In this document: positions 9,001 through 15,000 of the stretch, piece after piece
Layout of the letters: every line of letters begins with the position of its first letter
Numbering within the stretch: position 1 is the first letter of the stretch
Origin: Phaseolibacter flectens ATCC 12775
GTDB lineage: Bacteria > Pseudomonadota > Gammaproteobacteria > Enterobacterales > Enterobacteriaceae
DNA length: 32,000 nt
Assembly (NCBI GenBank): GCA_000518745.1
Contig: KI912487.1
Direction: 5' to 3' (one strand)
Program-made: the position numbers

Positions 9001-12000
9001 CTCCGCTCTTAGGACGGGGATCAAGAGAGGTCAAACCTAAAAGAGATCGCGTGGATGCCCTGCCTGGGGTTGAAGCGTTAAATCCAATCAGGCTAGTTTG
9101 TTAGTGGCGTGTCCGTCCGCAGCTAACCGGCGAATGTAAAGATTGGACTAAGCATGTAGTGCCGACGGTGTAGTAATTTCGGACGCGGGTTCAACTCCCG
9201 CCAGCTCCACCAAATACTCTTCCGAAGACGTCCGAGGAAGTCTAAAAAGCCCGCTAACTCAATAGGTTGCGGGCTTTTTTATGTCCGGTGGTGTCCGAGG
9301 AGTTTCGCCTAAATCCAGTGACTATTGGTATACGCATTGGTATACGTTAAGATATACCTAAAAAACGTATACCAATGAGGAAGGATATGCCTTGTCTCGA
9401 ACTACGCGCCCCCTAACCAATACCGAAGTTTCACGCAGTAAAGCCATTGAGAAAGAAATCACGCTTCATGATGGTGACGGCTTATTTTTAGTGGTCAAAA
9501 TTTCCGGTAAAAAATTATGGCGTTTTCGTTATCTGCGTCCTGCTACCAAAAAACGCACGATGATAAGCCTTGGTTCCTACCCTTCTTTATCTCTCGCTGA
9601 TGCTCGAGCCTTACGTTCGGAATACTTGAGCCTGCTTGCTAGAGGACTTGACCCCCAAACTGAGGCTGAGCTAGTTGTAGAGCAAAAGCAGATTGCTGTA
9701 GAGAGTATTTTCAGTACAGTTGCCGCTAATTGGTTCTCAATTAAAAGTAAAATCGTTACAGAGGACTATGCCAAAGGCATATGGCGATCCCTAGAAAGAG
9801 ATATATTTCCTGTCATTGGCAACACACCAGTTCAAGACTTGAAAGCTAGAGTGTTAATTAGTGCCTTAGAGCCAGTAAGAGCTAGGGGGGCATTAGAAAC
9901 CGTAAGAAGGTTGATTCAACGTATAAGCGAAATACTCACTTATGCTGTGAATACAGGATTAATCGACACTAACCCTGCTTTGGGAATAAACATGGCGTTT
10001 GAGCGCCCAAAGAAACAGCATATGCCGACGCTACGCCCCGAAGAACTCCCCAAGCTGATGCGTTCACTTGTTATGTCTAATCTTTCTATTCCTACCAGAT
10101 GCCTGATTGAATGGCAGTTGCTCACTTTGGTTCGTCCTTCTGAAGCCTCTGGCACGCGTTGGCAAGAGATCGACCTCAACGCCAAACTGTGGATGATCCC
10201 TGCCGAACGCATGAAGGCCAAGCGTGAACATATCGTCCCTCTATCTCCTCAAGCTCTAGAAATCTTAGAAATAATGCTTCCGATTAGCGGCAACCGTGAA
10301 TACCTATTTCCTAGCAGGAATGACCCTAAGCAACCAATGAATAGCCAAACAGCTAACGCCGCATTAAAGCGTATTGGCTATGGCGGTAAGTTAGTTGCCC
10401 ACGGTTTAAGGTCAATCGCTAGCACCGCTCTCAATGAGGCAGAATTTAATGCAGACGTCATTGAGGCAGCATTGGCACATAGTGATAAGAATGAGGTTAG
10501 ACGGGCTTACAATCGCTCTACGTATCTTGAGTCACGCAAGGAGATGATGGATTGGTGGGGGGGGCTTGTGAGAAAAAATCAACTAACTAAGGTGGCGTAA
10601 AAATTATTTCATTAAAGTTATTATTTTCTACCCATTCATGATTGGCTTTCTTCCATCATTAAAATAAAATTTAAACAATTAAAAGTGCTAATCAATTTTT
10701 GTTGTGAATTGCTGCTCAGAGCAAGGTGTGGAAGTCAGCAGTTGTTCCCAACGTCGATGGTCAGAGATCAGCACTAGGTGTTATGAACTTCCGCCCAAAA
10801 TTCTTTTCATAGAGAAAAATTTATGTATTATCTCTATAAAAATTGAAGTTTTTTGTCAACGAATGATAAGAGAAGTGTTATAAAATGAGTTGTGTGTCAG
10901 TTAACTACATAATCAAAAGGGAAGAAAATGATTAAGCTAATCATTCGATTATTGACCCTAACAGGCTCGATTATAGCCTTGATTACAGCTATTTCATTGA
11001 ATAGTAATAATTTCTATTTTACATCTTTGAGCTTGTTCATCGGTTTTTTAGGTACTTTAATTAAGACTAAAAAAGCAGTAGCCATCCAAAACATAGCGAC
11101 ACAAAGGGGGGGCTCTTTTTCACAGAACACTCAAAATAATTATTTCTCCGGTACCAGCGGAGACAACCAATAATGAATAGTATCAAACAACGTGGTGGAA
11201 TAGGTTCAACAAATATACAAAATAATTTTTTGACATCATCGAACGATTTTGTCCGATCCCCATCTATCTTCATGAATCTTGTTGAAATAATCGCTTCAAT
11301 TGAAAATTTTCAACCAAGTAGCTCTAATGATGATTTTTCCATTTATGATATTGAGGGTAAAATTGAATTCAATGACGTTATAAAATACAGAAGTAGGATA
11401 GAAAATATCTATTTATACAACAATATGATAGAAAAATCTTATGAAGCATTAAATGAGAAGATGCCAGCAGCTAGGGAAAAATCATTAAACAGAATAAACT
11501 GTTATTATCGGGACTGCATTGGTGATATGGAAGTAGAGAACAAAGCCTATCTAAAAAAAATAGAGTGTAGAATAGAAAGAAATAATGCCTTTTTAAATAT
11601 AATAAAGAATAATTCAGATAGAATAATCTGCTGTGTTATTGAAAATGTTAAAAAAACATGTGTTAATGCTTTGAATACCACTGCGGTTTCGATTGAAGAA
11701 ATTGAAATGCATGCCGCATATATAGTTTTTCACGCTTTTGTAGAGTGCAAAATATTGGAAAAACCATTATGATTATTTCTAATAGTATTAGACCGCAAAA
11801 TACTATTTATTACTTAGGTGCAAAGCTGATTCAATGTATTCAGTCTCAGCGCTCAAAGATATTGGATAGCATAATTTTATTTGAGAATCTGCAAAAACTG
11901 GTTCCCTCGAAAGTAAGTTTCGTGCAATATATGTACACCTTAAACTGGCTCTTCCTTATCGACCTTGTTGAGATCAATGATAAAGGAGATATTGTCATAT

Positions 12001-15000
12001 GTTTTTGAGCAACCTCATAGTCAGTTCACCAAAATTAGGTGAAATTCGAAACATTACTTTTAAAAAAGGAGTTAATTTAATTGTTGATAGAAGTACACTC
12101 ACTGATTCAGAGACTGGAAATAGCGTTGGTAAAACTACAGCCCTAAGAGCATTAGATTTTTGTTTCGGATGTAAGCAAGAATTATTTTATACTGACCCTG
12201 AGTTTAAAAAAGACAATGAGATTATACGTAACTTTCTTATTGAAAATGAGGTCGAGTTTACACTAACTTTACTATCTGAGAATAATTTACCGCTAATTGT
12301 TTACAGAAAAGCATTGCAGGAACCAAAAATACTTTGTAGAATAAATAATGTTGAATATAAAAAATTAAAAAACTTTCACCAAGATCTCAAAGTTGCACTT
12401 TTTTATAGTTCAGCTGATAAGCCCTCCTTAAGAGAAATAATGACACGTGTTATTCGGGATACACCCGATAGAATGTCTAACACGTTAAAAACGTTATTTA
12501 ATAAAACTAATTATTCTGTGTATGAAACTCTTAATTTATTTCTTTTTGGGTTTGAAGATTCCTCATTACTATCAGAAAAACAAAGCGTTACTAAAAATCT
12601 AAAAAAAATTGATACTGAATTTCAATTATTAACAAAATTAAAATCTAAAAATGCATTAAAACAATCTCTTGAAGTAATTAATCGTGAGATTGAAGATAGT
12701 TCTAACAAGATAGATAATTATGACTTAGGCGCATCGTATGGCCAGCAGATGCAAGAGTTGAATGATATTAAGATTGAAATTTCAGATTTATCATTAGACT
12801 TAGCTAGTATGAATATGAAGCGTACTCTTCATGAGCAAGCCATTCATGGTTTACTTGTTCAGAAAGATAATTCCAATCCTGATGACTTAAAAAAACTGTA
12901 TAATGAAGCAACAGACCGAGTTGGTTCTCTAAGCAAAACTTTCGAAGATGCTTTAAATTTTCATAATCAAATGATTATAAATAAAGTTAAGTTCATTAAT
13001 TCACAAATGGCAAATATAGAGAGAGAGATAACTTCTCAAAATAACAAACTAGGTAACTGGCTTAAAAAGGAGTCGGAAATATTAAAAGAACTATCTAAGC
13101 TTGGTTCTTTAAGTGATCTACAATTATTACAAAAAGATTTAAACAAACTATACGAAAGCAAAGGGAGCTTTGAAAGCTCGTTAAACCAAATCGAAAATTA
13201 CGAATCCAAAATAAACATCCTCACTATTAAACTCAAAGAAATCACCTTCAAAATAGATAACTACATCAGTCAGTTTGATGATAACCTTAAGATTTTCAAT
13301 AAATATTTTTCAAGATATACTCGCCAACTTTATAATGAAGAATTCATACTTAGTTACGAATTTAAATCTAATCTATTTCAATTCACTATTAACCCTATTG
13401 GAAATATACAGTCAAAAGGCAACTTAGGTGATGGTAAGAAAAAAGGACAAGTTTCCGCTTTTGATCTAGCATATCTTTCCCTCCAAGAGGAAGTATCATC
13501 TAAATTTATACGCTTTGTAGCACATGATGGAATTGAAGCAATACACCAGAATCAAATTAAAACCCTTTTCGATATCGCAGCGCGCATTGATGGACAATAT
13601 ATAATAGCAATATTGAAGGATAAGTTGGCTAGCATTAATGGCAACACCATTACTACAAGTACTATTTTAGAGCTAAGTGAGAACGATAAGTTTTTCAAAT
13701 GCTAACCTCATATATTAGACTAAATTTGTTTGGCAGCTTTCACTCGCAACCTACAATCAAGCTTGAGTTACAGTTTTTGGCACACCACAAACTTTCAGTA
13801 TCAAATCCTTCTCCTTCTAATTTACTTCCGACTTATATCCACCAGGATCTACAATATCCAAAGTATGAGAAGTTAGCATTGCAAGCTCTATAAGGAAGTT
13901 TCTTTGTCTAGTGTCAGTTGTTTCTTCGCTGACGATTGCCTTTAAATTTTCAGTGGTGTTTATGTGCAGCTTCCCCCTCTGCACGCACAGCCCCGCCCGC
14001 CTACGCACTTCACTTAACGATGCGGTTTTTATGCACCTGTGATTTTGTGCTAAACCCCGCATGACATGGGCTGTAGGGAGAAATGAAGTGCATGGAAATT
14101 ATGCGTTTTTATGCAGCATAGACATGCACTCACAAAAAAAACGCTGGCCAGAGAAAGAAGGTGTAAAAAAGCCCAATTTATTTGGGCTAATGGGTTAGTG
14201 AAGTTAAAAGTTTGTGCTTAACAGCTCAGGTTTGAGCATGCCGATTAGTGTTTTTGAATGATGAGCCGTACCGGTCTAATAACTGGCTTTTATGCATTTG
14301 CATTTGCATTTTCTTTTCTTCTACCGTCTGTTTTTTCAATTAACCGCTCTGGTTTGCTGATTATATTATCCACACGCTCCAGTGCAGTAAACGTACAGGA
14401 GCAATCGAGGTTAGTACATTGGTAATAGGTTCGTTTCACCGAATCAGTCTCATATTGGCTTGAACGGCAATGCGCCATCTTTGTACAAAAAGGACATTTT
14501 AACGCCATTATTTGCCGCCTTGCTTTTTCATTGCTCTACGAACCGAAACTTTATGTCTTGCCGCAGGTGTTCCGCCCTTATGAATGTCATAATGAGAAGC
14601 CGATTGAGGGTAGTGGCCCACTAAGGTAAAGGCAGGGTCATGTGGAAGTTCCTCATTACTAAATACACGGGATAAAATTTCATCTTTAACGAAATTAGTT
14701 AACGCGCTTTTCTCGTCAAAATGGTTTTCCAGTGAGTGGGTTAACGTTTCATTCATCAAGGTCAGCAATTGTGTTAATTCCTTACCGTGCTGACGCATAA
14801 ACTCACTCCAAAGCTGCTTAGCTCGAAGATTTTTCAATTGTTTGTGCGCAGCAATGTACTCACTTGCTCTATCGGCAGTGTCCCAAGGGATAGTCTCGAT
14901 TTCTTCCTCAGTGGCCGCAAGCAGTTCATCGAATACCTCTAACGATTCGCGATCTAAGGCTACCTCTGAGCGTAGCACCCGCATTTCTTTTGTCATTTCA

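Follow-up and report, generated by a model that had tools for sequence, protein, structure and literature searches.

Between the integrase and delta genes of a P4-like satellite integrated at ssrA in Phaseolibacter flectens ATCC 12775 lies a four-gene cassette of 2.8 kb, which we place in the Lamassu family as a short, type II Lamassu (ABC-three-component, ABC-3C) of a CTD10/MC6/DUF2326 (YydD-like) subtype. It was analyzed as part of a 32,000-nucleotide stretch (32 kb) of contig KI912487.1 (assembly GCA_000518745.1), referred to below as the window. In order, the genes encode a two-helix transmembrane (TM) protein, a LmuA-like adaptor, a middle component (MC) and a LmuB-like SMC/Rad50-type ATP-binding cassette (ABC) ATPase (Table 1). 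The TM protein and the adaptor carry the same short motif, one in its C-terminal and the other in its N-terminal tail; the motif was missed in the original prediction for this locus and is its most informative feature. We propose that this is a Lamassu with a split effector, in which the adaptor tail would recruit and convert the tail of the TM protein, leading to a lethal membrane lesion and abortive infection. Judged from the sequences, we give this reading a probability of about 0.55. The cassette had been put forward as an uncharacterised anti-phage system. Its family turns out to be known, but the effector arrangement, a tiny fourth TM gene and an enzyme-less LmuA joined by a terminal motif, appears to be undescribed: our literature searches returned no earlier description of the CTD10/TM arrangement, nor any link of Lamassu or ABC-3C to amyloid motifs or a TM effector.

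The shared motif is ~20 aa long and rich in G, N, S, T and Q. Local alignment of the two tails gave a score of 50, against 22.6 ± 4.5 for composition-preserving shuffles, none of which reached 50 (0/2000). In the adaptor, the N-terminal tail is MNSIKQRGGIGSTNIQNNFLTSSN.., of which Q6, G8, G9, S12, N14, Q16 and N17 are the same in all 15 homologues compared, at identities down to 59%, and yet fall outside the CTD10 profile. Translated in all six frames, the window contains the motif pattern at these two places and nowhere else. The two copies are 54% identical in DNA and use different codons for identical residues, so the likeness must be selected at the peptide level; for the same reason we rejected a recent DNA repeat as its source. 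The TM protein itself consists of two hydrophobic segments (residues 1–25 and 30–45), a basic KTKK stretch directly after helix 2 and a polar C-terminal tail, with two further basic residues, K3 and R7, near the N-terminus. The basic flanks of TM helices face the cytoplasm (positive-inside rule). Given the positions of K3, R7 and KTKK, the tail would thus be cytoplasmic and within reach of the adaptor. The protein matched no Pfam, NCBIfam or PADLOC family and had one weak PHROG match of unknown function; its homologues, 78–101 aa in length, occur only as small proteins.

The four genes lie on the same strand and are joined by overlaps just as first noted: TAATG at 11171–11175, ATGA at 11769–11772, and 10 nt at 11999–12008. 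The third gene has an alternative GTG start at 11745, giving 87 aa, but the ATG at 11769 is favoured because homologues start MI[IL]SNSI. Purine runs resembling Shine-Dalgarno sequences lie just 5' of genes 1, 2 and 4. Two clades with saturated synonymous sites both keep all four genes together, the small open reading frame (ORF) included, and the ratio of nonsynonymous to synonymous substitution rates (dN/dS) is 0.06–0.36 across the four (0.07–0.36 for the TM gene, 0.06–0.07 for the middle component). All four are therefore under purifying selection, and neither these values nor the joint recurrence in two saturated clades would be expected of chance ORFs. The separate TM protein, singled out at the outset as the only effector-like part, is in this way an integral and conserved fourth component. 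The cassette also stands out in composition, as had been noted, with a GC content of 0.28–0.35 over 10.5–13.5 kb vs. 0.43–0.48 in the integrase gene and 0.41–0.44 past 14 kb. The leader has promoter-like hexamers at 10642–10670 and 10804–10831. However, a promoter scan of the leader found 24 sites where 16.5 ± 5.3 are expected for such AT-rich DNA, and neither promoter nor terminator scans of the AT-rich cassette DNA were informative.

How general is the pairing of a small TM gene with the adaptor? We collected 67 CTD10 loci from GTDB genomes, metagenomes and IMG/VR, which reduced to 33 non-redundant loci (<80% identity, with enough flanking sequence). In 26 of these, spanning Proteobacteria, Firmicutes and metagenomes, CTD10 is encoded by a stand-alone gene, and in seven it is fused to HNH, SMEK_N or Mrr_cat. 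The association with a TM gene is strict. Every stand-alone gene (26/26) has an overlapping or abutting ORF of 57–112 aa upstream, encoding one or two hydrophobic helices (one locus, L029, was counted after its start codon had been corrected by hand), while none of the seven fused loci has a small TM gene (Fisher p = 7.7e-5). The two motif genes overlap or are separated by a few nt. The tail of the small protein matches that of its own adaptor at z ≥ 2.5 in at least 22 of the 26 loci, and the cognate pairs tested beat their shuffles each time (z = 4–14). Across pairs, the motif has a median aligned length of 20 aa and is enriched in G (15.9%), N (18.7%), Q, S, T and I (11.2%), with 4.3% K and nearly no P (0.1%) or L (1.5%).

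At least four flavours of the motif can be told apart, and scores between flavours are at noise level. In Enterobacteria both tails are of the type TQKGGxxSxNxQ, and in Firmicutes both are of the type N-x-G-x-N-x-G-V-M-A-G-x-V-x-G-G-I, ~30 aa long with an internal N-x-G periodicity on both sides. The tails of the TM protein and the adaptor read DRSTYVEQANDITIN and DRSTNIGTAQTVTIN, respectively, in Acinetobacter, and NKNQSGGTSQTGNNNIQNN and NKNQSGGTSQTGDNNTQNN in an alphaproteobacterial metagenome-assembled genome. Within a flavour, cognate tails are closer to each other than to non-cognate ones (p = 0.007 and 1.5e-4; overall 5e-5). Independent evolution after an ancient duplication predicts equal cognate and non-cognate distances, so this excess points to co-evolution or gene conversion of the tails.

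These comparisons bear on two simpler accounts of the small gene. It could be an artefact, a spurious ORF in AT-rich DNA whose likeness to the adaptor reflects chance similarity of low-complexity polar tails; the ORF is indeed short, AT-rich and without a family, and gene callers skipped it in several genomes. That account is effectively refuted by the dN/dS of the TM gene, the conservation of the TM segments across phyla, the shuffle scores, the excess of cognate over non-cognate similarity and the mere two occurrences of the pattern in six frames of 32 kb. A split pseudogene or frameshifted TM-CTD10 fusion was likewise rejected: the split is kept in all 26 lineages with a copy of the motif in both halves, the overlap geometry varies by locus, and 0/129 stand-alone representatives have a fusion-derived TM segment. 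The recorded gene calls of four loci (L001–L003 and L007) omit the small TM ORF, and those of L001 omit MC6 as well. With such omissions, automated surveys would see a two- or three-gene operon.

The adaptor matches the full Pfam CTD10 profile over residues 35–196 (7.7e-10). Its AlphaFold2 model has a mean predicted local distance difference test score (pLDDT) of 89 and shows a helical domain at residues 28–199, whereas residues 1–27 have pLDDT values of 51–62. The low confidence of this tail in the monomer model suggests that it is probably disordered. The description of the 199-aa product as a helical protein holds for the domain, which is, more specifically, a LmuA-type C-terminal adaptor domain (CTD) without an enzymatic N-terminal domain; where LmuA has its effector domain, a low-confidence tail of 27–34 aa alone precedes CTD10. 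An exhaustive profile search gave 276 CTD10 representatives, mostly 170–225 aa. Among the best 150 of these 276, some 140 are 97–224 aa long and ten are 255–348 aa, the long ones carrying HNH, SMEK_N or Mrr_cat at the N-terminus and forming a minority of the family. The missing effector domain, as far as profiles can tell, is the norm for CTD10 proteins. One long representative (P0129, 347 aa) seemingly has an HNH-like domain, CTD10 and an MC6-like C-terminus (..INWLFLLDIIQFEEGCIKKCF) in a single chain, and would appear to be a fusion of effector, adaptor and middle component. Nuclease, protease, TIR, HEPN and methylase domains had been reported absent from all four proteins, and Pfam, NCBIfam and PADLOC searches agreed at E ≤ 1.

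The ATPase matches Pfam DUF2326 at its C-terminus (2.3e-17) and, in PADLOC, the candidate-system model PDC-M68B (2e-41), LmuB (1.2e-9) and AriA (3e-4); the other three proteins had no match to the other PDC-M68 models of PADLOC at E ≤ 1. The motifs quoted for it earlier are all present, ETGNSVGKTT at residues 38–47 together with GDGKKKGQVSAFDLAYL, FIRFVAHDG and AIHQNQ. In an alignment of 64 homologues, G40, N41, G44, K45 and T46 of the Walker A motif (GNSVGKTT, 40–47) are invariant, H509, D510 and E513 of and near the Walker B motif (FVAHD, 506–510) are nearly so, and Q533 is invariant. The protein has the predicted Walker A lysine and Walker B hhhhD of a type II Lamassu ATPase. The AlphaFold2 model (pLDDT 86) bears out the head split by a coiled coil, but the coiled coil spans residues ~188–445, or ~260 aa, rather than the ~350 aa first estimated. 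No CxxC occurs at its apex, the sole CxxC of the ATPase lying in the head at residues 55–58, and the apex is predicted to lack a zinc hook. The middle component, the equivalent of LmuC, covers the whole of the Pfam MC6 profile (5.3e-15). Related loci, where examined, encode a counterpart of 76–79 aa at the same place, after CTD10 and before the ATPase. The three Pfam matches uphold the original assignment to ABC-3C systems with a DUF2326-type ATPase.

Single-sequence and profile searches of the Protein Data Bank (PDB) with the ATPase and the adaptor returned nothing meaningful, and only the comparison of folds was informative. With Foldseek, the ATPase found Bacillus subtilis YydD first (9a6c_A, 3.4e-23) and LmuB next (9ux7_A, 9.5e-14), with the Salmonella LmuACB chains 9hqx_B (8e-13) and 9hqu_A (~1e-12) also ranking above most condensin, cohesin, SMC and Rad50 chains; it is a LmuB-like SMC/Rad50-type ATPase. 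For the adaptor, the single real match was YydB (9a6c_B, probability 1.0, query-normalised TM-score, TMq, 0.50). YydB-YydD, an integrative model of a DUF2326-type ABC-3C pair, is thus the best structural match for both proteins, and some sources name the homologues of the ATPase 'YydD (DUF2326 family)'. However, YydB has 481 aa where the adaptor has 199, the alignment is partial (169 columns, target-normalised TM-score, TMt, 0.23), and our adaptor has the motif tail only and would rely on a separate TM protein.

ABC-3C systems are now counted as type II Lamassu, or within a Lamassu superfamily (PMC10586767; bioRxiv 2025.06.23.660979), and the statement that they have little experimental characterisation is outdated, as the type has been validated and structurally solved. 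Lamassu is one of the most abundant families of defence systems, occurring in ~10–15% of genomes, and the members so far tested protect against phages. In the known mechanism, a dimer of LmuB with LmuC (LmuB2-LmuC) holds LmuA as a monomer; when DNA ends are sensed, LmuA is released and tetramerises through its CTD (bioRxiv 2025.06.23.660979). The cassette shares with DdmABC/LmuACB of Vibrio cholerae and LmuACB of Salmonella the order of adaptor/effector, middle component and SMC-like ATPase on one strand, partners drawn from the ABC-3C MC and CTD families of Pfam, and a location in prophage or satellite hotspots; among the experimentally solved structures, LmuB is also the closest in ATPase fold. 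It differs in that Vibrio LmuACB has CTD7/MC3 (bioRxiv 2025.06.23.660979) in place of CTD10/MC6/DUF2326, in that the adaptor is without a Cap4, Sir2, protease, lipase, HNH or other enzyme domain, and in the fourth gene, whose two-TM product is tied to the adaptor by the terminal motif. At the sequence level, no solved chain matched the ATPase or the adaptor. Placement in an already validated system, which had been named as an outcome that would count against the original proposal, has come about for the Lamassu family, and not for the other systems named with it. PARIS was rejected because the AriA match is weak and partial (residues 41–234) and no TOPRIM/AriB-like gene is present. Septu, Gabija and Wadjet were rejected as well, the weak AriA match being the sole relevant one and a partner nuclease being absent.

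The closest published description is that of short-Lamassu Clade O, in which the effector domain of LmuA has seemingly been lost while LmuB and LmuC are intact, with >100 sequences from >40 species (Haudiquet et al., bioRxiv 10.1101/2025.04.02.646746, as far as the parts of the text available to us go). The architecture described there fits our 199-aa, 79-aa and 568-aa genes; the same parts of the text contain no upstream TM gene, shared motif or TM effector. Such a clade raises the alternative that the system is truly effector-less, acting through the ATPase complex itself, which might bind phage DNA ends or replication forks, or through a host factor, with the TM protein as an anchor or negative regulator. 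The apparent loss of the LmuA domain in that clade and the absence of a detectable enzymatic domain in our four proteins are what this alternative would lead one to expect. The distribution of the TM gene is not: its presence in all stand-alone and no fused loci is predicted for a replacement effector, not for an accessory anchor. Small TM proteins are, moreover, established effectors of abortive infection in other defence systems. We consider an effector-less system improbable.

We propose that the TM protein and the adaptor together form a two-chain LmuA, in which a homotypic peptide motif replaces the covalent linker. At rest, a dimer of the ATPase with the middle component would hold one adaptor molecule inactive, as in the solved Lamassu complexes. 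Phage DNA ends or replication intermediates would trigger its release, and the freed adaptor domains would oligomerise, gathering their N-terminal tails. The clustered tails could then take up a β-rich, amyloid-like fold. This fold would draw in the matching tail of the TM protein and convert it, and the TM hairpins would cluster into a lesion, depolarising or permeabilising the inner membrane and aborting the infection. Release of LmuA followed by oligomerisation through the CTD would bring the N-terminal tails together, and so provide the proximity that nucleation by the tails would have needed. In its strictest form the proposal is one of prion-like templating, with a Lamassu sensor of the SMC/Rad50 type passing the signal to a cross-β fold of the adaptor tail and on to the TM protein, which would kill the cell; this form we put forward only tentatively.

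The pair resembles those of amyloid signalling in several respects. Dyrka et al. describe the motifs of amyloid signalling as ~25 aa long, with an excess of Q, N, G, V and I and a shortage of K, P and L. In HET-S/NWD2 and in the Bell/NLR (nucleotide-binding leucine-rich repeat receptor) pairs that use bacterial amyloid signalling sequences (BASS), a G/N/Q-rich motif of ~20–25 aa is found C-terminally in the effector and N-terminally in the receptor, and two-gene and all-in-one architectures alternate. The CTD10 loci share all of this: a terminal motif common to adjacent collinear genes, its length and composition, and the alternation of two-gene with all-in-one forms. Nucleation follows from oligomerisation of the receptor in those pairs and would follow from that of the adaptor here. 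A further precedent is the Bab/Agp (BASS11) pair of Escherichia coli ECOR25, which causes abortive infection through amyloid signalling; its genes are adjacent and collinear, the C-terminal motif of its small effector is repeated at the N-terminus on the sensor side, its effector acts on the membrane, and it too sits in a hotspot, in that case a prophage defence hotspot. Sensor and effector are of other kinds in our system. No NACHT/NB-ARC NLR or TGP sensor and no Bell/HeLo-like effector is present; instead, the motif is carried by the CTD10 adaptor itself, presumably held by the ATPase complex, and by a TM hairpin, whereas the effector Bab is a soluble Bell-like helical domain. The hosts, too, differ in that they include unicellular enterobacteria and mobile elements. 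The Bab/Agp paper makes no mention of ABC, CTD or Lamassu.

The same tails could also be joined in a simpler way, as a constitutive, stoichiometric, heterodimeric β-zipper. The two chains would still make up one LmuA, and CTD oligomerisation would cluster the TM helices without any templating. Co-occurrence and co-variation fit any direct tail-to-tail interaction, translational coupling suggests co-assembly, the class A motif is short (15–23 aa), and the effector is already resident in the membrane. The composition of the motif, rich in G, N, Q and I and poor in P, L and K, matches that of BASS and β-helical motifs, although this is not decisive, and the Firmicute motifs are long and periodic on both sides. 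With a constitutive tether, the adaptor would be sequestered at the membrane and so be remote from the DNA that the ATPase would sense, again not a decisive objection. On this balance we regard the zipper as rather unlikely.

Several observations weigh against the split, amyloid-type effector that we favour, or against parts of it. The motif in the window is short (~15–23 aa) and polar-rich, and a non-amyloid β-zipper would leave the same signature in the sequence. Tail similarity is weak in 3 of the 26 pairs (L034, L041 and L050). The effector is a constitutive TM hairpin with no soluble Bell/HeLo-type domain that inserts on activation, and because it sits in the membrane from the start, the analogy to HET-S and Bab is incomplete. 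The solved LmuA CTDs, of types CTD7 and CTD12, are not among the top Foldseek matches to the CTD10 model, so that tetramerisation of CTD10 would be an extrapolation. The PADLOC match to LmuB lies mostly over the coiled coil (residues 159–492). Finally, the likeness to Clade O is one of description, which makes our system a possible rather than an established member.

The known logic of Lamassu is to sequester one effector, release it and let it oligomerise. If the split-effector reading is true, a short homotypic peptide can carry the signal of a Lamassu in trans, and the overlooked upstream gene of 57–112 aa would be the missing effector of an 'effector-less' clade that annotation pipelines mis-describe, one that is widespread among Firmicutes and in the prophages and satellites of enterobacteria. 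Were the tails amyloid, Lamassu would for the first time be linked to amyloid signalling, and the pair would be the first of the amyloid kind to combine a constitutive TM effector with a sensor that is neither NLR nor TGP. The range of homotypic or amyloid signalling, hitherto known from NLRs and one E. coli TGP system, would then take in a DNA sensor of the SMC type as well as ordinary enterobacteria with their phages. The co-varying flavours of the motif are natural orthogonal pairs, which makes clean swaps possible and may be useful for synthetic signalling.

Table 1. Coordinates of the cassette, the shared motif and neighbouring features in the 32 kb window
Feature	Position	Strand	Basis or remark
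TM protein gene, 81 aa	10928–11173	+	ORF translation; proposed effector
TM protein C-terminal tail motif, residues 55–77, NIATQRGGSFSQNTQNNYFSGTS	11090–11158	+	Local alignment to adaptor tail
LmuA-like adaptor gene, 199 aa	11173–11772	+	Pfam CTD10
Adaptor N-terminal tail motif, residues 2–24, NSIKQRGGIGSTNIQNNFLTSSN	11176–11244	+	Match to TM protein tail
Middle component gene (LmuC equivalent), 79 aa	11769–12008	+	Pfam MC6
LmuB-like SMC/Rad50-type ABC ATPase gene, 568 aa	11999–13705	+	Pfam DUF2326; proposed sensor
AT-rich leader, integrase stop to gene 1	10601–10927	+	Putative promoter region
tmRNA gene, attachment site	8849–9212	+	ARAGORN
Satellite tyrosine integrase gene	9392–10600	+	Pfam Arm-DNA-bind_3, Phage_int_M, Phage_integrase
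Ogr/Delta zinc-finger gene	14290–14508	-	Pfam Ogr_Delta 3.7e-14; right bound of hotspot, with Psu-like gene
Psu-like gene, 239 aa	14508–15227	-	Pfam Psu 1.6e-8

The cassette is cargo in the interval between int and delta of the satellite. Past the Psu-like gene follow AlpA, Ash, DUF5375 and a primase-helicase (Pfam). The interval had been proposed to be a hotspot with a swapped cassette, and a survey of 80 IMG/VR loci whose integrases are 72–80% identical to that of the satellite bears this out. In 54 of the 80, the next gene of the satellite backbone after the integrase is a delta homologue of opposite orientation, and together with the window this gives 55 intervals of 0.4–6.1 kb that fall into 36 sequence clusters; the present cassette was found in none of the 54 related intervals. 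The largest ORFs in these hotspots include SIR2, Hachiman HamB, AbiU and several PADLOC candidate families. The diversity of the intervals and the known defence genes among their cargoes support a swapped-cargo defence hotspot.

Elsewhere, the four-gene cassette was found in a P2-like prophage of Klebsiella, where it lies between portal and gpA, in a Salmonella ssrA island with MobA, TraD and a reverse transcriptase (RT), in a Pectobacterium island, and in E. coli lambdoid prophages. It was thus found here on mobile elements only, and type II Lamassu DdmABC of Vibrio acts on plasmids as well, both of which speak for a cassette that mainly serves the mobile element, whether through addiction and stabilisation or, like DdmABC, against plasmids or competitors, with phage defence secondary or absent. 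The related hotspots, however, hold the anti-phage genes SIR2, HamB and AbiU, and the Lamassu members tested protect against phages, so we think such a role highly improbable.

The version in the E. coli lambdoid prophages (L155–L157, 2939–5725) is ~50% identical, has proteins of 79, 198, 78 and 574 aa with matching tails (HTIIQKSGSHSKNNQTVVFG and MVDVTQRAGKYSRNVQLVVG), and has DUF977 on one side and hok/Rem/antiterminator Q on the other. A single ATPase cluster comprises 352 sequences, which suggests that this variant is common in E. coli. A megablast search of complete E. coli genomes with the cassette from the window returned no match, and the same search with the block from delta to DUF5375 returned a 290-bp icd-like piece only.

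The Psu profile matches only residues 86–232 of the Psu-like protein, whose minus-strand gene precedes delta, the two genes sharing one base. In three related satellites, a single large ORF fills the hotspot between int and delta (L123:8213-10954(-), 913 aa; L141:8224-10860(-), 878 aa; L099:1546-3993(+), 815 aa). None of the three has a PADLOC match at 1e-5, and they are candidate defence genes. Short repeats flank the satellite at 9268–9357 and 20772–20947 (57 nt at 70% identity and 22 nt at 91%), the 57-nt copy containing a terminator-like TGCGGGCTTTTTT. They probably mark the ends of the satellite, an element of ~11.7 kb, or else tandem islands at ssrA. Directly past the primase-helicase, at 19763–20545 (+), the AT-rich DNA holds an ORF of 260 aa that belongs to no family of Pfam, PADLOC or PHROG; the satellite may have a second site for cargo here.

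The AT-rich region at 19.5–24.5 kb also contains, at 21340–24100, three tandem units of ~1.27 kb with 68–95% identity. They carry paralogous ORFs on the minus strand at 21598–22533 (311 aa), 22871–23293 and 23272–23811, which have no Pfam or PADLOC family except for one weak BrxA-like match (0.0026); the 311-aa ORF, the only one of the three scanned against PHROG, had no match there. A few kb past the satellite, at 27666–31740 (-), lie P2-like tail genes, gpD, gpU and an 840-aa tape-measure-like ORF. A P2-type prophage, and with it a possible helper, thus seems to adjoin the P4-like satellite.

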